64,000 bases of DNA, from positions 948,891 to 1,012,890 of the forward strand of contig CP011210.1 of the NCBI GenBank assembly GCA_001029675.1. Reading direction: 5' to 3'. This document shows, in pieces, positions 2,184 through 54,494 of the stretch. The DNA is from Candidatus Beckwithbacteria bacterium GW2011_GWC1_49_16. Lineage in GTDB: Bacteria; Patescibacteriota; Microgenomatia; UBA1400; CG1-02-47-37. The notes below the pieces were generated by a model that was given only the letters and a program-made list of their open reading frames with translations, searched no databases and was not told the DNA's origin. A program made the position numbers and the translations under genes. Position 1 is the first letter of the stretch. Each line of letters starts with the position of its first letter.

Positions 2184-2796
2184 AGTCAACCGCGGCGGCT
2201 ACTCGGCTTACTGGCGCCGCTTAAGAACTTTATCCCAGGCGCCGTCGGCCAAGGTGTCTGGTTTAGTCAGTCTGACGATTTTTACGGTGGCGTTTTTTGG
2301 CTTGTTTGCCATTTTACCCACCTTCCGCACCATTGCCGAACTGACCCGGGAGATCGACGATGCCAAGGCAGTCAACAGCAGTTTAGCCAAAAAAATTAAG
2401 GCGCTGGAAAACGCCGAAGAAGTCTACTCCCAAGCCTTGCCGCGGCTAACGCTGATTGACGCGGTGGTGCCCGGCGGGCCGGAGTTTGACCGCTTGGCTT
2501 GGCAGATTCAATGGTTGGGGGCGGACAGCGGAGTGAACATTACCAGCGGCAGCTTCGGCGGTTTTCCTTTGCTTTCGACCAAAGAAAGCAGCGAGCTTAG
2601 CCAAATCGAGATGGAACTGACGGTGCAGGGCGACTACGGGGCGATTAAAAACTTTTTGGCGGATTTGACCAAGATCGACCGGCTGGTGGCAATAAATGAA
2701 GTTAATATTACCAGTAAGGGCAGCCAAGGAGTTCAGGTAGTAACGGCCAACATTCAGGCTTTGGCGTATTTTTTGCCGGGAGGAGAAAATGATTAG
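2167..2796 (+). CDS. pilO: Type IV pilus assembly protein PilO-like
   Basis: Immediately follows pilN with an ATGA overlap. Has an N-terminal TM segment, a coiled coil and a C-terminal globular domain; it occupies the PilO position. Confidence 0.55.
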   Translation: MKLTTRVNRGGYSAYWRRLRTLSQAPSAKVSGLVSLTIFTVAFFGLFAILPTFRTIAELTREIDDAKAVNSSLAKKIKALENAEEVYSQALPRLTLIDAVVPGGPEFDRLAWQIQWLGADSGVNITSGSFGGFPLLSTKESSELSQIEMELTVQGDYGAIKNFLADLTKIDRLVAINEVNITSKGSQGVQVVTANIQALAYFLPGGEND

Positions 2797-3130
2797 CGCT
2801 CTCTACGAAAAAAAGCTCAAGCGCGACATCTTTAGGCTGTCGCTGATGACCTTGATCACGGTGGTAATTTGGATCGGGGTAGCCACCTACAGAGCTTTTA
2901 CTAAAAGCCAAGTTGGCGGCAAGATAAAAAGCCAGATTATACCCTTGACGCCTACTCTTGATCTTGACACAATGGAACTTACAGATCAGAGGCTCAAAGT
3001 TGAACCGGTTAACTGGGACAGTCTGCAACCGGTATTTGAGGTGGTGCCGGAAACGGCTGAGCCGGAAGCCTCGCTAAGCGAGGAAGCCTCGCCGAGCGGG
3101 GAAGCCACCGCCAGCGGCTCTCAACTATGA
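2789..3130 (+). CDS. Small membrane-anchored protein, Ser/Glu/Ala-rich C-terminus (possible PilP-position protein)
   Basis: One N-terminal TM helix. Overlaps the pilO stop and the next gene start, i.e. operon-coupled. Confidence 0.35.
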   Translation: MISALYEKKLKRDIFRLSLMTLITVVIWIGVATYRAFTKSQVGGKIKSQIIPLTPTLDLDTMELTDQRLKVEPVNWDSLQPVFEVVPETAEPEASLSEEASPSGEATASGSQL

Positions 3131-4449
3131 AAAAATTTGGTTTAAGCAAAATTCACTTTCCTACTGCCCTAGGACTATTAATTTTATTGGTCGCCATTGG
3201 CGTGGGGGTGATGTTGGTAAGGAATCGCACCGGGGTGGACACGGAAGCGGAAGGGTCGCTGACACCCAGACAAGTGAGGATCACCAATGTGGCTGATACC
3301 AGTTTTAGCGTATCCTGGATTACCGATCAGGTGGCAAGCGGCCAGATCCGCTATGGCACCGAAGCCAATTCTTTGACTAAAACCGCGGCCGACGAAAGAG
3401 ACCAGCTATCGGGAGACACGGGCAGTTACGAGGTCCACCAAGTAACCTTGAAAAATCTGACGGCAACAACTGCCTATTACTTCAAGTTGGAGTCTGGCGG
3501 AAAACAGTTTGACAACAACGGCAAACCGTTTGAAGTGGCTACCGGGCCGACCCTGGGTGACCCGCCGGCGGCAGACCCGATTTACGGCACGGTTTTAACC
3601 TCGTCGGGGACGGCGGCAGAAGGAGTTTTGGTTTACATTAATGTCGCCAACGCCGGGCCGCTGTCGGCTTTGGCCAAGGCCAACGGCAACTGGGCTTTGA
3701 ATTTATCGACCGCCAGGACGGCAGATTTAGGCAGTTACTTGGCTTACGACACCCAAGCGACGATCGTCAATTTGTTGGCTCAGGGAGGAAAACTAGGGAC
3801 GGCGACGGCGGTGACCACCGCGGCCAACGACAGCCCGGTGCCGGACATTACTCTCGGCCAGTCTTATGACTTTAGGGCTGACGCTGCCAAAACCCAAGAC
3901 CAAACCGCCGAGCCGTTAACCGGCTTTGAACTGTCGCCGATTGCCACTGGCTCGGCCGCGGCGACTGCCTCGGGTGAAGTAACTTTAGAGAATCCCAGTT
4001 TTGACGGCGAAGTCTTAAACGCCACCCAGCCGGCGTTTATCGGCACCGGGCCGCCGGGAACGGTGTTGACGCTCCTGGTGGAGTCGGAAAATACCTATAC
4101 CGGATCGGCGACTGTCGATGCTAGCGGCGAGTGGGAATTTAGCCCCCCGGCGGGGCTGACCCCGGGCGGGCACACGGTGACGATTTCCTATATCGACGAT
4201 AATGGCGACGAGCAGACGCTCACCCGTAACTTTGTCATCGCCGCCGCCGGCGACAGCGACGAGCCGGCAATCACCGCTACCCCTTCGGGGCAAACGGCGT
4301 CGCCGTCACCCGCGGCCAGAACCGGACTGCCGGCAACGGACTCGGGAGTGCCGGAGCCGGGAACAGGAGAGATAACTTTATTAATGCTGATTATGGGTTT
4401 AGGCTTGCTGGCCGGAGGAGCGGTAGTCAAAAGGATAAATTCGCTGTAA
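3127..4449 (+). CDS. Cell-surface protein with an N-terminal signal-anchor, an FN3-like (purple-acid-phosphatase N-terminal type) domain and a C-terminal hydrophobic anchor
   Basis: PRQVRITNVADTSFSVSWITDQVASGQIRYG is an FN3-like motif. The C-terminus LPATDSGVPEPGTGEITLLMLIMGLGLLAGGAVVKRINSL has an LPxT(D/G)-like motif, a TM helix and a basic tail. Confidence 0.5.
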   Translation: MKKFGLSKIHFPTALGLLILLVAIGVGVMLVRNRTGVDTEAEGSLTPRQVRITNVADTSFSVSWITDQVASGQIRYGTEANSLTKTAADERDQLSGDTGSYEVHQVTLKNLTATTAYYFKLESGGKQFDNNGKPFEVATGPTLGDPPAADPIYGTVLTSSGTAAEGVLVYINVANAGPLSALAKANGNWALNLSTARTADLGSYLAYDTQATIVNLLAQGGKLGTATAVTTAANDSPVPDITLGQSYDFRADAAKTQDQTAEPLTGFELSPIATGSAAATASGEVTLENPSFDGEVLNATQPAFIGTGPPGTVLTLLVESENTYTGSATVDASGEWEFSPPAGLTPGGHTVTISYIDDNGDEQTLTRNFVIAAAGDSDEPAITATPSGQTASPSPAARTGLPATDSGVPEPGTGEITLLMLIMGLGLLAGGAVVKRINSL

Positions 4450-11833: not shown

Positions 11834-13636
11834 ATGCCCAAATCCCTGACTAAAGCTTTAAACCCGCCTCAAAAACTGGCGGTGACTTTTGGCGAAGGAC
11901 CTTTGCTCATTTTGGCGGGAGCGGGTTCGGGAAAAACCCGGGCCTTGACTTATCGGGTAGCCTATTTGATCAAGGAGCGCCAAGTGGATCCGAAAAGGAT
12001 TTTACTGGTGACGTTTACCAACAAGGCGGCGGGTGAGATGAGACAACGGCTAGAAAAGTTAGTAGGACGAGACCACAGCGCCGGTCTTTTTGCCGGGACG
12101 TTTCATGCCTTTTGCGTCCGGCTTTTAAGAATTGATGGGGGCAAGATCGGCATCGAGCCAAACTTTGTGATTTACGACGAGGCTGACAGCCTGGCGGTGA
12201 TCAAAAAGGCGATCAAAAACTTAAAGCTTAATCCCAAAACCTACAAACCCCGAGGGGTGAAAAGCCTTATTTCCCAGGCTAAAAACGAGCTGATTTCTGC
12301 CGAGGCTTATCCCCAGTACGCCCGGGGCGAGTGGCAAAAGGGGGTGGCGGAGATTTTTTTGGAGTACCAACGCTTACTTAACCGCTTCCGGGCGCTTGAT
12401 TTTGACGATCTTTTAATGAAAGCGGTTTACCTGCTTAAAAAAGACCAACCGACGCGGCAAAAATACCAAGACCGGTATCAGTGGGTACTGGTGGATGAAT
12501 ACCAAGACACCAACAAGGCCCAGTATGAACTGACTAAAATCTTGGCGGGTAAGTGGCGTAATTTGGCGGCGGTGGGAGATTTTTCCCAGTCGATTTATGC
12601 TTTCCGGGGGGCGGATTACCGCAACATCAACCAATTAAAGCAGGATTTTGCCGACTTGAGACAGATAAGTTTAGAACAAAATTATCGCTCGACCCAGACG
12701 ATTTTGGACGCGGCTACCGCGGTGATTGCCAAAAATAGCCTCCACCCGGTGTTGACCTTATGGACCAAGGCGGGTTTGGGGGCGAAGGTAAAGATTTTTG
12801 AGGCAGACAACGAAAAAGAAGAAGCAGGTTTTATCGTCGCCACGATAAAAAACGACCCAGGCAGCCATGCGGTTTTATACCGAACCAACGCCCAGTCCCG
12901 GGTAATCGAGGAGGCGCTTCTTAAAAACGGAATGGCCTACAGCTTGGTGGGCGGGGTGAGATTTTACGCGAGAAGAGAGATCAAGGACCTGACGGCCTAC
13001 CTAAGGCTAATCAACAACCCCAAGGATTTAGTCAGTTACCAACGGTTGGAAAAGTTGGGGAAAAGGAGTCTTAACCGGTTTGTTAACTGGCTCGACCAGA
13101 AAAAAAATATCGACAAGCTGCCGACCAGAAAAATTTTGGAGCAGGTGGTCAAAGTAACCGGCTATCTTGACCGGTTTGACAAAAAGAACGAGGAAGATCT
13201 AAACCGCCTGGAAAACATCGATGAATTAAACAGTGTGGCGGAAGAGTTTAAGGATTTGGGGGCCTTTTTAGAAAACGCAGCCTTGGTCGAGGCGGCCGAC
13301 CGGCCGACGCTAAAGGGTAAAGAAAACCACGAGGGAGTAACCTTGATGACCATGCACAACTCCAAGGGCCTGGAGTTTGATACGGTGTTTATGATCGGCA
13401 TGGAAGAGGGACTTTTCCCCCACTCGCGGTCTAGTTTCAACAAAGAGGATCTCGAGGAAGAACGCCGGCTCTGCTACGTGGGCATGACTCGGGCTAAGCG
13501 GCAGCTTTATTTGTCTTATGCCCGGGGCCGGTTTTATTTTGGCAGACGAAACTACAATACGGTCAGCCGGTTTTTGGCCGATATCGACGAGGGCTTGTTG
13601 GAGTTTGTTAATCAGGAATTTGATATTATTACTTAG
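11834..13636 (+). CDS. pcrA: ATP-dependent DNA helicase PcrA/UvrD (600 aa, compact)
   Basis: Walker A AGAGSGKT; motif III VGDFSQSIYAFRGAD intact; motif VI VGMTRAKRQLYLSY. Confidence 0.85.
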   Translation: MPKSLTKALNPPQKLAVTFGEGPLLILAGAGSGKTRALTYRVAYLIKERQVDPKRILLVTFTNKAAGEMRQRLEKLVGRDHSAGLFAGTFHAFCVRLLRIDGGKIGIEPNFVIYDEADSLAVIKKAIKNLKLNPKTYKPRGVKSLISQAKNELISAEAYPQYARGEWQKGVAEIFLEYQRLLNRFRALDFDDLLMKAVYLLKKDQPTRQKYQDRYQWVLVDEYQDTNKAQYELTKILAGKWRNLAAVGDFSQSIYAFRGADYRNINQLKQDFADLRQISLEQNYRSTQTILDAATAVIAKNSLHPVLTLWTKAGLGAKVKIFEADNEKEEAGFIVATIKNDPGSHAVLYRTNAQSRVIEEALLKNGMAYSLVGGVRFYARREIKDLTAYLRLINNPKDLVSYQRLEKLGKRSLNRFVNWLDQKKNIDKLPTRKILEQVVKVTGYLDRFDKKNEEDLNRLENIDELNSVAEEFKDLGAFLENAALVEAADRPTLKGKENHEGVTLMTMHNSKGLEFDTVFMIGMEEGLFPHSRSSFNKEDLEEERRLCYVGMTRAKRQLYLSYARGRFYFGRRNYNTVSRFLADIDEGLLEFVNQEFDIIT

Positions 13637-15644: not shown

Positions 15645-16102
15645 TGATTGTGGCCTTGGAAAACATCAGGAGTCTTTATAACGTCGGGGCGATTTTAAGA
15701 AGCGCCAGCTTTTTTGGAGTGAGCGAGGTATTTTTGGTGGGGGTAACGGGGTCGAGGAAAATCGGCGGCCAAAGGTGGCTTCACGAAGGGTTAGCCAAAA
15801 CCGCTTTGGGAGCAGAATGGCAGTTACAGATCAAAATCTTGAAAGACAGCCAGAAATTGATTGATCTTGCCAAGAAGAACGGTTTGAAACTGGTAGTAGT
15901 GGAGCAAACGGCGGGGGCAACTCCCCTGTCAAGCTTCCGGCCGGGCAAAAACATGGTCTTGGTCTTTGGCAACGAGGTAACTGGCGTCAGTCAAAAAGTT
16001 TTGGCGGCGGCAGACAAGGTGGTAGAAATCCCCCGACGGGGCAAAAAAACTTCTTTAAATGTCGCCGTGGCGGCCGGAATTGTTTTAAGTCGATTGGGGT
16101 AG
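15644..16102 (+). CDS. SpoU/TrmH-family RNA 2'-O-methyltransferase
   Basis: SPOUT motifs: LYNVGAILRSA...LVFGNEVTGVS...SLNVAVAAGIVL. Confidence 0.8.
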   Translation: MIVALENIRSLYNVGAILRSASFFGVSEVFLVGVTGSRKIGGQRWLHEGLAKTALGAEWQLQIKILKDSQKLIDLAKKNGLKLVVVEQTAGATPLSSFRPGKNMVLVFGNEVTGVSQKVLAAADKVVEIPRRGKKTSLNVAVAAGIVLSRLG

Positions 16103-19100
16103 GTCCTGCCTGTCGGTAGGCAGACCCAGGGGCCAGCAGTGGCGGCGGTATTCGCAGCGAAGACAATGGCGTTGATAGTCGGTGGTGCGGGCAAAGCGGT
16201 GGCGGCGAATGGCTTTCATCGAAGACTTGATGGTGGTCATCAATTTGGCTACCTGATCGTCTGGAATGTCAAAGCTTCGTTTGACAAACTTGGTCTTTTT
16301 TAGGCCGGACTCGACAAAATCCAGCTCGGCTTCTAAGACTTTGTAGCTTAGGCGCGGATCAGCAGCAAAAAGAAGCCTGTAGAAAACCAGCTGACGAAAA
16401 AGGTCGCCCGAAGAAGTTTTGGTCTGGCCCAAAATGTCGTTAGCGCTTTTAGTCGGCCCGGTTTTGTAGTCGGTGACCTTGATGGTCTTTTTGGTTTTAT
16501 CGATTAAATCAACCCGGTCGATTTTGCCGGATAAGGGGATGTCGTCCAGGTAGGGCTTGGAGTAAAAACCGCCAAAGCGCAATTCTACGGCCAACGGCTT
16601 GGTCATCTCTTGATGGTAGTAGCGGTAGTAGGCGGCAAGGGCGTTGACGCCTTTATCAATAAAATCGGCGTGTCTCACCGGAGTTAAAACTTCACTACCT
16701 AAAGCTTTCTTAAACTGGCTTAATAAAAATTCCTTGGCGGGCAAGCGGTTGGTTTTGAGGAAGCGGCGGTAGAATATTTCCAAAGCCTTATGGACGGCGG
16801 TGCCAAAAGATAAGTAGGCTTGTTTGGCCCGGGGGACACGAATGAGGTTGTTTAGCTTGAATTTATAGCTGCAGGCCAGATAGGTGTTTAGGGCCGTAGC
16901 CGAGAGTTTAAAGTCTTTTAAAATGAGGTTGAGAAAATCACTTTCTTTGACGGACGGGGTTACCTGGGGCAGGGGTTTTAAGAGTTTGGTTAGGGCCTGT
17001 TTGGCCTGTTTAGTTAATTGGGGTGAGACGGGTTCAAGGTATTTTTGAGGAATTTCGGAAACAAACATGGAGGGGACGGCTTCTTTGCCGGTGACGGAAC
17101 CCGAGTAGCGGTCGGCGTAAGTAACGCAGACTTTTTTGCGGGCGCGGGTTAGCCCCACGTAAAACAGCCGCCTTTCGTCTTCATTTTTCTCTTTTTTTTG
17201 AAGATCGGTGAAGCTTAAGATCCCTTGGGGAAGTTTGATTAACTCCCGGGTGCGGTTGTTGCCCCATTTTTTATCGATAGCCCGATAAATAAAGACGTAG
17301 TCCCATTCCCTCCCCTTGGCTTTGTGGACGGTAGATAGGGTGACGGCGTTGGTTTTTATGTCCAGATCCTGCTCGACGACGCTCAAACGGTTTTGTTCCA
17401 TCAACTCAAGGGCTTTAATGAAACCAACCAAGTTGAGGCTGTGGTCGGCTTGGTTTAAACTTTTGACCTCGGCAAAAAGCGAGTTTAAACGGTTTAGCTT
17501 TTCGACGCTATCGGGCAAAGTCTCGAGCCAGCTTAAAAACCCCGACTGCTTTAAAACCATTTCGAAAAACTGGCTGAAGGTTTTTTCGGCGTCCAGCTTT
17601 CTCCAATCAGAAAGCTTGCCAATAAACTTAGTGATTTTGGAGCCGGATTTGAGCTTTAATTTTTTAAATTGGGGCGAGAGAATAAAGTCCACCAGATTGG
17701 TGTCGGCTTGGGCGACGGCCCGGGAAAGTTTTAAGATATCCAGGGCGTCTAATTTCAAAAACTGATAGTTTAACAGGGTGAATAAATCAAGGTCGTCACC
17801 CGCGCCTCCGCCGGCGTCGCTGATCACTTTCAAAAGGAGCAAAAACTGGTTTACTACCGGGTCGATTAAGACGTTGCCGCCGCCTTCTATGTCCAAACTC
17901 ACCCCAAACTTGGTGAGCATTTCTGCCAGCGTCCCGGCGTCGGCGTTGTGGCGAAAAAGAACGGCGATACTCTCTGGTTTGGTACCTGATTTGATCAGCC
18001 GGTCTATCTCCCGGGCGAGCCAAAAGGTTTCCAGAGTTTCCGAAGGAAATCTGACCAAAGACAGCTTTTGCTCTTTGAATTTACCTTGGGATTTTAATGT
18101 GGTGGTGGCTTTTTTGAGCTGGAGCTGGTTTTTTTTGATGACGGCGGCGGAGGCATCCAGGATGGTTTGAGTGGAACGGTAGTTTTGCGCCAGTTCAATC
18201 ACTTGGGCTTGGGGGAAAAGATTGTTGAAGGCGATAAAGTTCTCGGTCGAAGCTCCTTGGAAGCGAAAAATTGAATTATGAACTACCACATTGTTGGCTA
18301 CAAAATTGTGGCTAGGCGGTACTTCCAAGTCATAAACATTGATGGTTTTTATTTTCTTCTCGCGTTTAATGACTTTATCGTAGATAACCTTATGCCTTCT
18401 AACCACAGGGAGGTAGTTGCCAACTAAAATATTGCCTGCTTGCATTATTCTTGAGGGGCGGTGCTGTATCCTGGTAGTTCCTAAAGGCGCCTTAATATCA
18501 ATAATTCCAGGGAGTTTTCTCTCAAGCTTTTCGGCAATTTTATACAATTGAGAGAAATCAGTGTTATTTAGTCTGAAGCCTTTACCGATATTTTTATTTC
18601 TAAGCTTAAATCCGAGCTTGTTAAGTTTTTTTATGATTTTTTTGTTTGAAGTTTGGATTCGTAGCTCATGAAGAATGGAGGGGGATTGTAGTAGTCCTTT
18701 TTTATCATATTTAGAGCGATAGTTTCTTGAACACATAACAAGGTTAATTTTGATTCTCCCGTCCCCCAAAGTGGTTGCATCTCGAATATAATGGGGTTGA
18801 TTAAGATTTACCCCGAGATCTTGAGCAAGTATGGCAGCATTTTTTTCTGTATCAAACTCTTGATACAGCTTTTTAAGCCACTTGCCAGTAATTGCGTTAT
18901 TTCTTTCTTGAAAAACAACCGTTGGGATTTTGTAGGTAAGCGATAAAACCATTTCACGGTATCTGGCTTCTGCTTCTGATTTGTGTGCTGACAGGCCAAT
19001 AATTTTATCGGCTCCTGCCTCAATTTTTAGTCTTACTGAAAGGCTTCTTGTAATGCCTAAACGCCAACCCAAGCTTTTTTTATACATGAGGTAAACATAC

Positions 19101-20185
19101 CAGATGTTAGTCATTTCTCTGGGCGGGATAAAACAGAACATTTTATGATTATCTGTAGTAGCTATTTTTTGACCTGACTCGGTTGTAAAAGTAATGAGCC
19201 TAACTTTTCTTTTTTGCTTGAAAACCCTTTTAACTTTAGCGTAAGAGGTGTAGCCTTTACCTACCGCGGTTAAAACTTCATCTCCGGCTTTAATCTTTTC
19301 GATGTTTTTAAGGCCTGATTTGGTGTTGATTTTGATGCCCGCCGGCAAACACTGGTTCGGGTCTCCGACAACAAAGACATTGGCCTGATCGCCCCAGTAG
19401 GAAGCCAGAAGTTGTAAAACCTGGTTTTGAGCCGAGTTGGTATCCTGGTACTCGTCAACTAAAAAATAAAGCAGGCGCTCCTGATGGGTTCTTAATATGT
19501 TGGTATCCTGCTTAAAAGCGACTGCCACAAAATTGATCATGTCTTCAAAGTCATAGCGGCCTTTTTGGGCGAGTAACTTTTGGTAGGTTTGATAAACCCG
19601 AGCCAGGTCGTAGTTTTTGTCCAGCGTTTTTCTAGCGTTTAATAAGGCGGTGGCGGAAAGTTTGTTCTTCTCTTTTACCAACGAGGCTTTCTCTTTTTTG
19701 ACGATGGCGGCAAAAGTGATCGGGCTGACGGCTTCTCTTTTGAGGTCTTTTATTGATTCTATTAGGCTTGGGGTGTAGTAGAGGGGCGAGTTGGCCGGCT
19801 TGATAGCTTTAAAACGGCCGTGAGACAAAATCTGGTTAAAAATATCCACCCTTTCCAGTTCGGAAAGAGGCTCAAGATTCAAAGAAATGGCAAAGCGGTC
19901 GGCAAATTCCTGGATGACCGAGGAGCAAAAAGAGTGAAAAGTGGAGATATTAACGTAATAGGCCGGTTGGCCGATAGTGGCAAGTAGCCTCTGGCGCATC
20001 TCTCTGGCGCCGGATTCGGTAAAAGTTAAAGCCAAAATGCCGTCGGGGGGAGTGTCGGTTTTTTTCAAGATGTAAGCGATGCGCTCGGCGATGATCTGGG
20101 TTTTGCCGGTGCCGGGGCCGGCGATGACCATGACCGGGCCTTCGATGGTAGTGACGGCTTTAACTTGGGCCGGGTTTAGCTTCAT
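16085..20185 (-). CDS. UvrD-family helicase fused to a C-terminal Cas4/RecB-like PD-(D/E)xK nuclease with a four-Cys cluster, interrupted by an intein
   Basis: N-terminal Walker A AGPGTGKT and DEYQDTN. Motif III is split (VVGDPNQ | intein | SIFRFQGAS). The C-terminal nuclease carries Cys residues at YLACSYKF and CLRCEYRRHC. Confidence 0.8.
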   Translation of the reverse strand: MKLNPAQVKAVTTIEGPVMVIAGPGTGKTQIIAERIAYILKKTDTPPDGILALTFTESGAREMRQRLLATIGQPAYYVNISTFHSFCSSVIQEFADRFAISLNLEPLSELERVDIFNQILSHGRFKAIKPANSPLYYTPSLIESIKDLKREAVSPITFAAIVKKEKASLVKEKNKLSATALLNARKTLDKNYDLARVYQTYQKLLAQKGRYDFEDMINFVAVAFKQDTNILRTHQERLLYFLVDEYQDTNSAQNQVLQLLASYWGDQANVFVVGDPNQCLPAGIKINTKSGLKNIEKIKAGDEVLTAVGKGYTSYAKVKRVFKQKRKVRLITFTTESGQKIATTDNHKMFCFIPPREMTNIWYVYLMYKKSLGWRLGITRSLSVRLKIEAGADKIIGLSAHKSEAEARYREMVLSLTYKIPTVVFQERNNAITGKWLKKLYQEFDTEKNAAILAQDLGVNLNQPHYIRDATTLGDGRIKINLVMCSRNYRSKYDKKGLLQSPSILHELRIQTSNKKIIKKLNKLGFKLRNKNIGKGFRLNNTDFSQLYKIAEKLERKLPGIIDIKAPLGTTRIQHRPSRIMQAGNILVGNYLPVVRRHKVIYDKVIKREKKIKTINVYDLEVPPSHNFVANNVVVHNSIFRFQGASTENFIAFNNLFPQAQVIELAQNYRSTQTILDASAAVIKKNQLQLKKATTTLKSQGKFKEQKLSLVRFPSETLETFWLAREIDRLIKSGTKPESIAVLFRHNADAGTLAEMLTKFGVSLDIEGGGNVLIDPVVNQFLLLLKVISDAGGGAGDDLDLFTLLNYQFLKLDALDILKLSRAVAQADTNLVDFILSPQFKKLKLKSGSKITKFIGKLSDWRKLDAEKTFSQFFEMVLKQSGFLSWLETLPDSVEKLNRLNSLFAEVKSLNQADHSLNLVGFIKALELMEQNRLSVVEQDLDIKTNAVTLSTVHKAKGREWDYVFIYRAIDKKWGNNRTRELIKLPQGILSFTDLQKKEKNEDERRLFYVGLTRARKKVCVTYADRYSGSVTGKEAVPSMFVSEIPQKYLEPVSPQLTKQAKQALTKLLKPLPQVTPSVKESDFLNLILKDFKLSATALNTYLACSYKFKLNNLIRVPRAKQAYLSFGTAVHKALEIFYRRFLKTNRLPAKEFLLSQFKKALGSEVLTPVRHADFIDKGVNALAAYYRYYHQEMTKPLAVELRFGGFYSKPYLDDIPLSGKIDRVDLIDKTKKTIKVTDYKTGPTKSANDILGQTKTSSGDLFRQLVFYRLLFAADPRLSYKVLEAELDFVESGLKKTKFVKRSFDIPDDQVAKLMTTIKSSMKAIRRHRFARTTDYQRHCLRCEYRRHCWPLGLPTDRQDLPQST
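18275..19351 (-). mobile_element. Intein (~359 aa) inserted in helicase motif III of the UvrD-family protein
   Basis: Starts with Cys (CLPAGIKINTKSG...). Block B TxxH is TTDNH, ~67 aa in. Block F/G is NVYDLEVPPSHNFVANNVVVHN followed by the +1 Ser. Removing it restores VGDPNQSIFRFQGAS. Confidence 0.8.
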
Positions 20186-52164: not shown

Positions 52165-52174
52165 AGTTGCCCCT

Positions 52175-52244
52175 AAGGACAGACCTTCCAGCTTCGCTGT
52201 CCCGGCTTGGCCGTTGGCCACGCCTCCTGTTAAGGTCTGGCCTT
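52175..52244. repeat. Degenerate copy of the same repeat family in the valS 5' leader
   Basis: AAGGACAGACCTTcc...cctgttAAGGTCTGGCCTT; it shares cctgttaaggtc with copies a/b and gaccttcc with copy b. Confidence 0.6.
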
Positions 52245-52262
52245 ATTGGCTATAATACTGCC

Positions 52263-54494
52263 ATGGATAAGCGTTACCAGCCGGACCTGTTTGAGGATAA
52301 AATTTATCGAGACTGGGAGAAGTCGGGGACTTTTACCCCCAAGGCTAAAGGCGAGGCCTACTCGATCATCATGCCGCCGCCAAATGCCAACGATCCGCTT
52401 CATATCGGCCACGCCTGTTTTGTCACTTTAGAGGACATCTACGCCAGGTTTGAAAGGATGCGGGGCAAATCGGTTTTGTGGCTGCCGGGGACAGACCATG
52501 CCGGCATCGAAACCCAGTACGTCTTTGAAAAACGCTTGAAAAAAGAGGGTAAGAGCCGATTTGATTTTGACCGGGGAACTCTCTACCGGATGATTTGGGA
52601 TTACGTTGAGGAAAACTCGGGAACGGCGATAAAACAGATGAAAAAATTGGGGGCAAGCGCCGATTGGAGCCGGACCAAGTTTACTTTAGATAAAGACGTG
52701 GTCGCGATGGTGGTGGACACTTTCAAAAAACTCTACGATGACGGCTTGGTGTACCGGGAAGTGCGCTTGGTTAACTACTGTACTTCTTGCGGCACGGCCT
52801 TCTCTAACCTGGAGGTGAAGCACGTCGAAAGAGTAAGTCCCCTTTACTACATGAAGTACGGGCCGTTTACCCTGGCGACCACCAGGCCGGAGACCAAGTT
52901 CGGTGATACGGCCATCGAGGTTCACCCCGACGACAAACGTTACCAAAAATGGATCGGCCAAGAAGTCGAGGTCAAAGGTTTGGCGGGTAAGTTCAAGATG
53001 CGGGTGATTGCCGACAGAAGAGTAGACCGGAAGTTTGGCACCGGGGTGGTCAAGGTGACGCCGGCTCACGACTTTAATGATTTTGACGTTTACCTCAAAC
53101 ACAAGAAAGAGGTGCCGGGGCCAAAGCAGGTCATCGGCTTTGACGGCCGGATGAACCAGCTTGCCGGAAAGTACCAAGGACTAAAGGTGATGGAGGCAAG
53201 AAAAGCGGTGGTGGCCGACTTGACCAAGCGGGGCTTAATGGAAAAGGTGGATGAAACCTACCGGAATACCATCGGCGTCTGTTACCGCTGTGGCACAACG
53301 ATCGAGCCTTTACCCCTGCCCCAGTTTTATATCAAGGTAAAACCCCTAACCCAAAGGGCTTTGCGGGCATTAAAAGAGAAAAAAGTGAAGATCTTTGGCG
53401 CCGGCTACGACAAAATTTTGAACCACTGGCTCAAGAGCCTTGACGACTGGAACGTCAGCCGCCAAATCGTTTGGGGCATTCGCTTGCCTATATGGTATGA
53501 GGCTGATAAAAATCCGGAGGTTGAAGTTAAGTTTTTGAACAAAGACAAAAAACTCATAAGCGACCAGGTGGGCGAGTTGTTGAAAAATTATTCGTTGGCA
53601 GAGATAAAACGGGGCTTGCAAAGCCTGCGGGCGCCGCTCACGGCCAAGTTTACCGTCTCCCCTACCTCGCCGGGAGAAAATTTCCTCCAAGAAACCGATA
53701 CCTTTGACACTTGGTTTTCCAGTTCCCAGTGGCCGTTGGTTACCCTGAAGACAAGCAGATTTAAAGATGACTTTAAACGCTTTTACCCCACTAGCCTCAT
53801 GGAGACGGCTTACGACATTTTGATTTTCTGGGTGATGCGGATGCTTTTTATGGGACTTTACTTAACCGGCAAGGTACCTTTTGAAAAGGTTTATCTTCAC
53901 GGCTTGATCCGCGACGAAAAGGGGCAGAAGATGAGTAAGTCTAAGGGAAACGTGGTCGATCCGGTCGAGGTAATCCAAAAATACGGCGCCGACGCCTTAA
54001 GGATGGCTTTGGTAATTCGGTCAACGGCAGGCCGAGACAAAAACGTCGGCGACGATGATATCAGAGGCATGCGCAACTTGACTAACAAGATCTGGAATGC
54101 GGCCCGGTTTGTGATCGTGTCCAATAATACCCACTCAGAACACTCCCGGAGTGGGGTTGCGCCTGCGGCACACTCCGGGAGTGATAGCGACCTGAAAGAT
54201 GAAAAATTTAAGAAGGAGCTGTCCGGCGTGGTGAAGCAAATCACCGACCAGCTTGAAGCGATGAAGCCGGGGCTGGCGGCGGAAACGGTTTATTTCTACT
54301 TCTGGCACTGGTTTTGCGATGAATGTATTGAGCAGAACAAGCAGGGTAAAATTTCGCCACTAGCTTTGATCAAAGGTTTGCGGGTGTTTTTGAAGCTTTT
54401 ACATCCTTTTGTGCCGTTTGTAACCGAGGCAGTCTGGAGGCAGTTGCCCAAGACCGAGGAAAAATTACTGATTGGCGCCCAATGGCCCGCCTGA
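52263..54494 (+). CDS. valS: Valyl-tRNA synthetase
   Basis: PPPNANDPLHIGHA (HIGH), LPGTDHAGIETQ (the ValS hallmark) and KMSKSKGN. The start is taken at MDKRYQPD; the ORF-track start at 52167 reads through the palindromic repeat. Confidence 0.85.
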   Translation: MDKRYQPDLFEDKIYRDWEKSGTFTPKAKGEAYSIIMPPPNANDPLHIGHACFVTLEDIYARFERMRGKSVLWLPGTDHAGIETQYVFEKRLKKEGKSRFDFDRGTLYRMIWDYVEENSGTAIKQMKKLGASADWSRTKFTLDKDVVAMVVDTFKKLYDDGLVYREVRLVNYCTSCGTAFSNLEVKHVERVSPLYYMKYGPFTLATTRPETKFGDTAIEVHPDDKRYQKWIGQEVEVKGLAGKFKMRVIADRRVDRKFGTGVVKVTPAHDFNDFDVYLKHKKEVPGPKQVIGFDGRMNQLAGKYQGLKVMEARKAVVADLTKRGLMEKVDETYRNTIGVCYRCGTTIEPLPLPQFYIKVKPLTQRALRALKEKKVKIFGAGYDKILNHWLKSLDDWNVSRQIVWGIRLPIWYEADKNPEVEVKFLNKDKKLISDQVGELLKNYSLAEIKRGLQSLRAPLTAKFTVSPTSPGENFLQETDTFDTWFSSSQWPLVTLKTSRFKDDFKRFYPTSLMETAYDILIFWVMRMLFMGLYLTGKVPFEKVYLHGLIRDEKGQKMSKSKGNVVDPVEVIQKYGADALRMALVIRSTAGRDKNVGDDDIRGMRNLTNKIWNAARFVIVSNNTHSEHSRSGVAPAAHSGSDSDLKDEKFKKELSGVVKQITDQLEAMKPGLAAETVYFYFWHWFCDECIEQNKQGKISPLALIKGLRVFLKLLHPFVPFVTEAVWRQLPKTEEKLLIGAQWPA

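Follow-up and report, generated by a model that had tools for sequence, protein, structure and literature searches.

A class-1 intein with a probable GIY-YIG-like homing endonuclease in motif III of a Patescibacteria helicase-nuclease

The DNA analysed here (the window) is the whole of a 64,000-nucleotide stretch from Candidatus Beckwithbacteria bacterium GW2011_GWC1_49_16, and all coordinates are given as positions within it. Positions 16085–20185 of its minus strand hold an open reading frame (ORF) of 1366 amino acids (aa) for a UvrD/PcrA-type superfamily 1 (SF1) helicase with a C-terminal PD-(D/E)XK nuclease, recognised by the Pfam models UvrD-helicase, UvrD_C and PDDEXK_1 and by its Patescibacteria orthologues. 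Helicase motif III of this protein is split by a segment of 359 aa (protein residues 279–637, minus strand 18275–19351) which, judged by profiles, motifs and a predicted structure, is a full-length class-1 intein, in which the two splicing lobes flank a large middle domain. The N-extein (residues 1–278, minus strand 19352–20185) ends in VVGDPNQ, the first half of the motif, and the C-extein (residues 638–1366 and the stop codon, minus strand 16085–18274) opens with Ser+1 of SIFRFQGAS, the second half, and continues into UvrD_C and the nuclease. The flanks of the insert read ...WGDQANVFVVGDPNQ / CLPAGIKINTKSG ... NVYDLEVPPSHNFVANNVVVHN / SIFRFQGAS, with slashes marking the splice junctions here and below, and splicing in silico gives the junction TGGGGCGATCAGGCCAATGTCTTTGTTGTCGGAGACCCGAACCAG/TCAATTTTTCGCTTCCAAGGAGCTTCGACCGAGAACTTTATCGCC and a product of 1007 aa. 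A paralogous pcrA in the window (11834–13636, plus strand) reads AVGDFSQSIYAFRGAD without interruption and matches the UvrD-helicase model PF00580 over positions 1–270 of 271. The original prediction, which had reported this insert between these two flanks in a UvrD-family helicase-nuclease of 1366 aa and had pointed to the uninterrupted paralogue, was exact on each count. In base composition the intein DNA has 37.7% G+C, against 48.6% in the exteins and 50.5% in the window, and the lowest-G+C bin of the composition profile of the whole window is 18001–20000 (0.418).

The intein assignment is supported by every profile for splicing domains that was applied, in searches that the original prediction had proposed. 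Pfam Intein_splicing (PF14890) matches the segment with 60.9 bits against a gathering score of 35.8 (E = 1.6e-16), which for a profile match is far above chance level, and the NCBIfam models for the two ends, intein_Nterm (TIGR01445) and intein_Cterm (TIGR01443), score 29.1 and 21.8 bits against cut-offs of 24.5 and 15.6, respectively. The first 70 residues align with the gp41-1 intein and the last 23 with the solved NpuDnaB intein (INVYDLEVPPSHNFVANNVVVHN versus EEVFDLTVPGLHNFVANNIIVHN), and the Hint fold is present in the predicted model. The Cys start, the TTDNH block B, the His-Asn end and the +1 Ser that had been read from the sequence are all present: TTDNH forms intein residues 65–69, with Thr66 and His69 as the TxxH motif, and the full class-1 set consists of Cys1, Thr66/His69, Asp341, His358-Asn359 and Ser+1. 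Across 114 complete inteins of the family, drawn from clusters at ≤50% identity, C1, H69 and N359 are invariant, and D341 and H358 are conserved at 98% and 96%. From the side of the helicase the insertion is clean. In the unspliced protein PF00580 matches over positions 1–251 with 194.8 bits and ends at aa 279, and the NCBIfam pcrA, rep and uvrD models restart at aa 637 at the adjoining model position; in the spliced sequence PF00580 extends over positions 1–270 of 271 in a single stretch with 222 bits, and UvrD_C (PF13361, 136.9 bits) and PDDEXK_1 (PF12705, 111 bits) are above threshold. Deletion of the insert thus restores a contiguous motif, as had been claimed.

Orthologues were sought with the spliced extein as the query, which returned thousands of relatives, and the best 120 were analysed. 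These are Patescibacteria helicase-nucleases of the 'ATP-dependent DNA helicase' type, nearly all of about 1000 aa, and the named lineages among them are Beckwithbacteria, Collierbacteria, WWE3, Pacebacteria and Dojkabacteria. The intein is found in two of the 120 (P0156 and P0170) and is absent from the other 118. One carrier, P0156, lies on an 81-kb contig from ENA, is 100% identical to the window protein over the overlap and presumably comes from the same organism. The nearest intein-less orthologue (P0157, 73% identity) has the identical junction peptide VVGDPNQSIFRFQGAS, and its locus (L001) is syntenic with the window, with FemAB genes and a second UvrD helicase adjoining in both. At the level of DNA, the spliced window site and this locus share a stretch of 15 identical bases across the junction, AACCAG/TCAATTTTT, in genes that are 69% identical overall. 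This distribution bears on the alternative that the segment is a lineage-specific insertion domain that belongs to the helicase and does not splice. Homologues do not share it as a conserved domain, since the 118 lack it and have motif III unbroken; furthermore, all the intein profile cut-offs are passed, every splicing residue is in place and the model shows the Hint fold. We found no point in support of a non-splicing domain and reject it as vanishingly improbable.

GDxxQ of PcrA and UvrD makes contact with the gamma-phosphate of ATP through its Gln, and the aromatic and Arg residues that come after it touch single-stranded DNA. Because the intein interrupts motif III in its middle (GDPNQ/SIFRFQGAS), the precursor should be inactive as a helicase until it is spliced. 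Its complete set of catalytic residues suggests that it is able to do so. In the reaction we propose, Cys1 would attack the peptide bond preceding the intein, the N-extein would be transferred to Ser+1, cyclisation of Asn359 would free the intein, and rearrangement of the ester to a peptide bond would yield the 1007-aa helicase-nuclease.

Five parts can be distinguished within the intein, all on the minus strand. The N-terminal splicing lobe of the Hint domain (intein residues 1–83, 19103–19351) carries block A with Cys1 and block B with T66 and H69. It is followed by a GIY-YIG-like module (residues 84–150, 18902–19102) with a predicted beta-beta-alpha-beta-alpha arrangement, proposed here as the catalytic core of a nuclease. 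A two-helix linker comes next (residues 151–195, 18767–18901), with helices at 156–165 and 168–179 in the model and a Pro-His pair at its end that is conserved in the family (P186 in 89% and H187 in 87%). The fourth part is a basic alpha/beta subdomain (residues 196–296, 18464–18766) with a pI of 10.5 and 24 Lys or Arg residues in 101 aa, for which the structural comparison gave no informative match; its charge and position, by analogy with the two-part GIY-YIG homing endonucleases, suggest that it may be the DNA-binding part of an endonuclease. The C-terminal splicing lobe (residues 297–359, 18275–18463), recognised by TIGR01443, by alignment with the NpuDnaB and PhoCDC21-1 inteins and by conservation, holds Asp341 of block F and His358-Asn359 of block G.

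The original prediction had noted that the middle of the insert was long enough for a homing endonuclease in which neither LAGLIDADG nor HNH motifs were visible, and this reading holds. Pfam, NCBIfam and PHROG models gave no match to intein residues 75–305 at E values up to 1. LAGLIDADG can be rejected, as there is no such profile, motif or fold: solved LAGLIDADG inteins (PI-PfuI, PI-PkoII, PI-SceI and TliVMA) superimpose on the model over about 136 residues of the Hint part only, and no LAGLIDADG structure matches the model of the middle domain. HNH is rejected as well, with neither a profile match nor the beta-beta-alpha-metal fold. Nor is an endonuclease encoded in another frame or on the other strand, where the longest alternative ORF in the intein DNA is at most 71 aa; the middle domain is therefore read in frame with the intein.

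What the middle domain resembles is the GIY-YIG core, a three-stranded sheet with flanking helices in the order beta-beta-alpha-beta-alpha. The model of the intein has strands at residues 84–91, 95–101 and 116–123 and helices at 104–110 and 126–140, and a separate model of the domain alone (pLDDT 79.1) has the same elements. When the domain was compared with predicted viral structures using Foldseek, the first three matches were two phage proteins of helicase size and a phage 'adenine-specific DNA methyltransferase' (E = 4e-11 to 3e-6), all of which appear, from their models, to contain the middle domain itself. In the long run of matches that follows (E = 0.005–0.1), the proteins that have names are most often GIY-YIG or group-I-intron endonucleases, and Seg-like, MUG113 and T5orf172 proteins are also present. 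Outside the intein's own family, GIY-YIG nucleases thus stand at or near the top of the structural matches with two programs and libraries. At the level of sequence, 35 diverse members were scanned one at a time with Pfam, for the module only, at E values up to 10. GIY-YIG (PF01541) was the sole family matched by more than one member, with seven sub-threshold matches (E = 0.011–0.14), which where coordinates were printed are collinear with the profile (member residues 4–67 on profile positions 1–68 of 78). The evidence for GIY-YIG is therefore consistent across methods at the level of the fold and suggestive only at the level of sequence.

The module is also the best-conserved region of the intein. 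In the 114 complete inteins, Y87, M89, R97, G99, R107, E111, E133 and P143 are conserved at 100%, and L88, G95 and F147 at 97–99%; the window copy has every invariant residue. The mean frequency of the top residue is 0.57 in the module, compared with 0.44 and 0.48 in the two splicing lobes and 0.39 in the rest. Five of the invariant residues are charged or aromatic (Y87, R97, R107, E111 and E133), a pattern as expected for an active site. Their spacing, V-Y87-L...(10)...R97-L-G99...(8)...R107-x3-E111...E133, can be set against that of I-TevI, G-I-Y6...Y17-V-G19...R27-x3-H31...E75, for which we used a sequence 100% identical to the phage records. By this spacing Y87, R107 and E133 would correspond to the Tyr of GIY, Arg27 and Glu75 of I-TevI.

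A nuclease of an unrelated or new fold could also give such a pattern, if the likeness to GIY-YIG came from the smallness and commonness of the beta-beta-alpha-beta-alpha topology or from structure prediction itself. Against this, GIY-YIG enzymes are numerous, and rank first or close to it, in the results of two different programs and libraries; the one recurring sequence match is to Pfam GIY-YIG and is collinear over the whole module; and in Y-x10-(R)xG-x7-R-x3-E the residues are spaced as in the GIY...YIG...R-x3-H/Y of I-TevI. Non-nuclease structures that score similarly may fit the second, alpha/beta subdomain instead. We therefore hold a new fold to be very unlikely, and a divergent GIY-YIG-type nuclease, as the models predict it, to be the probable identity of the middle domain.

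The intein belongs to a large family that is already present in public data and mostly unrecognised there. A word-indexed search of 5.8 billion proteins returned no more than eight relatives of the intein as a whole; each interrupts a UvrD-type helicase at this same site, and contig ends truncate most of them. Seven of the eight (P0001–P0007) are partial, and in nearly all of these the sequence stops within the intein; metagenome assemblies may break there, for example where intein-plus and intein-minus alleles are mixed. A profile of the middle domain (alignment A2), scored against 1.84 billion cluster representatives, gave 1450 matches at E values up to 1e-3, of which 706 pass at 1e-10 and 114 at 1e-30. 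Among the 150 best matches, 113 hold a complete intein of the same type, which in nearly all cases lies between the GDxxQ of motif III, or a close variant, and [S/C]-I-Y-x-[F/W]-R-G-A. Hosts include helicase-nucleases of Patescibacteria, a helicase from Elusimicrobiota, proteins resembling PcrA and, from metagenomes, unannotated multi-intein helicases of very large size. Some have been in the databases for years: the Collierbacteria records date from 2015 and are named just 'ATP-dependent DNA helicase PcrA'.

The family extends to phages. A tblastn search of 50,697 phage records with the middle domain gave matches in 39 genomes. Most belong to E. coli phages of the Justusliebigvirus/Phapecoctavirus type, and the genes are mostly labelled 'DNA helicase' or 'hypothetical protein'. 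Among the 39 is the cultivable Escherichia phage JohannJBalmer (MZ501084; Bas62 of the BASEL collection), whose record annotates an 'intein-containing UvrD / Rep family helicase precursor' with a mat_peptide for a 347-aa intein (L004, positions 2255–3295) that has the same module at the same helicase site, with the junctions GDEFQ/C...EILSHN/CIYQFRG. The shared host family (UvrD/Rep), site and module place it in the same intein family as the window copy, from which it differs in identity (about 31% over the module) and in host, the window copy being in a Patescibacteria helicase-nuclease fusion. As a separate observation, the third-best structural match to the middle domain, the 782-aa phage 'adenine specific DNA methyltransferase' in BFVD (A0A8S5TZY8, E = 3e-6), hints that the domain or the whole intein may, if the predicted structures are a guide, also occur outside helicases.

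Nine large proteins of 1086–2536 aa (P0023, P0026, P0027, P0030–P0033, P0052 and P0070), most of them giant helicase-like proteins from metagenomes, contain the module two or three times in separate inteins. The sites in these proteins are motif II (VDE/C...HN/CQD and DEAQDLNK/C...HN/CQH), motif III, ...LIKHN/C...HN/SKQIP and GT[CS]H/C...VHN/STKG, which brings the helicase sites used by inteins with this module to at least four beyond that of the window copy. This suggests that the endonuclease has been repeatedly retargeted. One of the nine, P0026, has an additional, LAGLIDADG-looking intein in its P-loop. The family also includes shortened forms. P0002 and P0003 have internal deletions in the middle domain (columns 90–148 of A2), of about 50 and about 13 columns, respectively, in both cases downstream of an intact GIY-YIG-like module. 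These may represent stages in the decay of the endonuclease. Three further ORFs of 350–362 aa (P0062, P0108 and P0143) consist of little beyond the family intein, lack Cys1 and end in ...VSN, ...IHT... or ...VHD..., where HN and a nucleophile would be expected; these could be free-standing derivatives, pseudogenes or artefacts of gene calling.

Comparison of inteins with their hosts is informative about the history of the element. The full-length relatives of the window intein are more similar to it than their exteins are to its exteins: 77% versus 59% identity in P0170, 62% versus 43% in P0013, and about 44% versus 27–29% in a further group. Together with the contrast in G+C between the window intein and its exteins, this fits transfer between lineages. 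In a low-G+C relative (L003), intein and exteins are alike in composition, at 33% and 36% G+C. These points are no proof that the window copy is mobile today.

Several results weigh against a GIY-YIG nuclease in the middle domain. The matches of the relatives to PF01541 reach only 13–15 bits, short of the gathering score of 22.6 and hence of the curated threshold, and the module of the window copy itself has no Pfam match. The profile of the module found nothing relevant among PDB sequences, the one match being a chance one to FGF18, and its hhalign comparison with ten authentic I-TevI-like phage sequences was not significant (probability 1.6%); a single stretch of that non-significant alignment pairs E133 with Glu75 of I-TevI. 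By the spacing given above, moreover, the catalytic set appears incomplete: R97 would stand at the Tyr of YIG and E111 at His31, a His/Tyr position, and there is no apparent equivalent of Asn90. T5orf172 and MUG113, two branches of the GIY-YIG clan, also have a basic residue where the YIG tyrosine would stand. Finally, splicing and DNA cleavage are, for every member of the family, predictions from sequence and model.

The incomplete set, to the extent that the mapping is correct, and the sub-threshold matches would also be explained if the intein splices but its middle domain is not, or never was, a nuclease. The domain would then be structural or DNA-binding, and the intein either inherited vertically or kept as a splicing switch of the helicase-nuclease. 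The deletions in P0002 and P0003 suggest that decay occurs in the family, and inteins in ATPase motifs have been argued to act as possible sensors (Novikova et al., PMC4760082). A non-nuclease domain is, however, difficult to reconcile with five invariant charged or aromatic residues in 114 inteins and with a module better conserved than the splicing lobes. In addition, the patchy distribution, the higher similarity of inteins than of exteins and the use of several helicase sites argue for continuing mobility. We regard a middle domain without nuclease function as unlikely, though it deserves more weight than a new fold.

The explanation we prefer, and consider probable, is a class-1 intein in motif III with a GIY-YIG-like homing endonuclease. 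The freed 359-aa intein would itself be the homing endonuclease, made up of a divergent GIY-YIG-like catalytic module, the two-helix linker and the basic alpha/beta domain that may bind DNA. It would cut the intein-less coding sequence of motif III, the likely target, and recombinational repair would then copy the intein into the cut allele.

In most respects the window intein resembles class-1 inteins with an in-frame endonuclease, such as PI-SceI, PI-PfuI, Mtu RecA and those of the HNH types. Its Hint domain is split by a middle domain, it has Cys1, TxxH and a terminal His-Asn followed by a +1 nucleophile, and its host, a protein of DNA metabolism, is interrupted in frame at an ATPase motif that is conserved; its distribution among orthologues is patchy. 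Unlike these inteins, it has a middle domain with no LAGLIDADG or HNH profile or fold and a predicted core that is GIY-YIG-like. With GIY-YIG homing endonucleases encoded by group I introns or as free-standing genes (I-TevI, I-BmoI and Seg proteins) it shares the predicted catalytic fold and the two-part layout of catalytic module, linker and separate basic domain, and a conserved Tyr, Arg and Glu appear to stand at matching spacing. It differs from the I-TevI type in being in frame within a contiguous intein, in having no NUMOD or zinc-finger modules, in scoring below the Pfam GIY-YIG threshold, and in the apparent replacement of the YIG Tyr by Arg and of His/Tyr by Glu, with no Asn equivalent seen. 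The GIY-YIG domain at the N terminus of UvrC and those of SLX1/URI are cellular repair nucleases outside mobile elements, and show no significant similarity in sequence.

That a UvrD helicase carries an intein is not in itself new, and such inteins are already catalogued, including the phage record of the same family. Novikova et al. 2016 (PMC4760082) counted sixteen UvrD inteins, and PcrA and UvrD are listed as intein hosts in a 2018 review (PMC5874633); the type of endonuclease is stated neither by Novikova et al. nor by the JohannJBalmer record. In reviews, the endonucleases that inteins carry in frame are given as LAGLIDADG and HNH. GIY-YIG endonucleases occur between the halves of split inteins in 'fractured genes' (Dassa et al. 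2009, PMC2677866), and GIY-YIG is stated as not known inside inteins both in that paper and by Dunin-Horkawicz 2006 (PMC1564403). A 2025 survey of actinobacteriophage inteins reports LAGLIDADG and HNH endonucleases in frame, LAGLIDADG and VSR-like ones in antisense, and EndoVII-like ones out of frame; GIY-YIG appears there solely within a general enumeration of types associated with inteins, for which the older papers are cited. In the searchable literature, which leaves most subscription journals and InBase outside its scope, we found no paper on an in-frame GIY-YIG endonuclease of an intein. We lean, if only somewhat, towards the view that these elements form a large undescribed class of contiguous inteins with an in-frame GIY-YIG-derived endonuclease and an altered active site (Tyr/Arg/Arg/Glu/Glu), which has spread through motif III and at least four other sites of SF1 helicases in Patescibacteria, other bacteria and phages, the cultivable E. 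coli phages included.

Elsewhere in the window, no ORF contains a second intein or a further copy of the module, and no protein with a GIY-YIG motif is present. ARAGORN calls a 96-nt tRNA-Gly(GCC) with its anticodon at position 39 on the minus strand (53237–53332); the region has no Rfam match at E values up to 1 and lies inside a 775-aa ORF on the plus strand (52167–54494), and the call is most likely a false positive. The GC skew of the plus strand is positive in all 2-kb bins but one regardless of gene direction, and the cumulative skew climbs almost steadily from 1 to 64000; the window probably lies within one replichore.

For annotation, the presence of this intein explains helicase genes that are often called 'partial' or over-long. 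If our reading of the middle domain is true, it would provide both a name and an active site open to testing for a domain that occurs in 1450 or more protein clusters and has no annotation in Pfam, NCBIfam or PHROGs. As the E. coli phages that carry it can be grown in the laboratory, splicing, cleavage and homing are directly testable. For the intein family, this would be a variant architecture, and the GIY-YIG-derived type would be a third major lineage of nucleases captured by inteins, beside LAGLIDADG and HNH. Such a capture would bear on the idea that inteins arose as endonuclease genes that stood alone entered splicing domains, and did so repeatedly.

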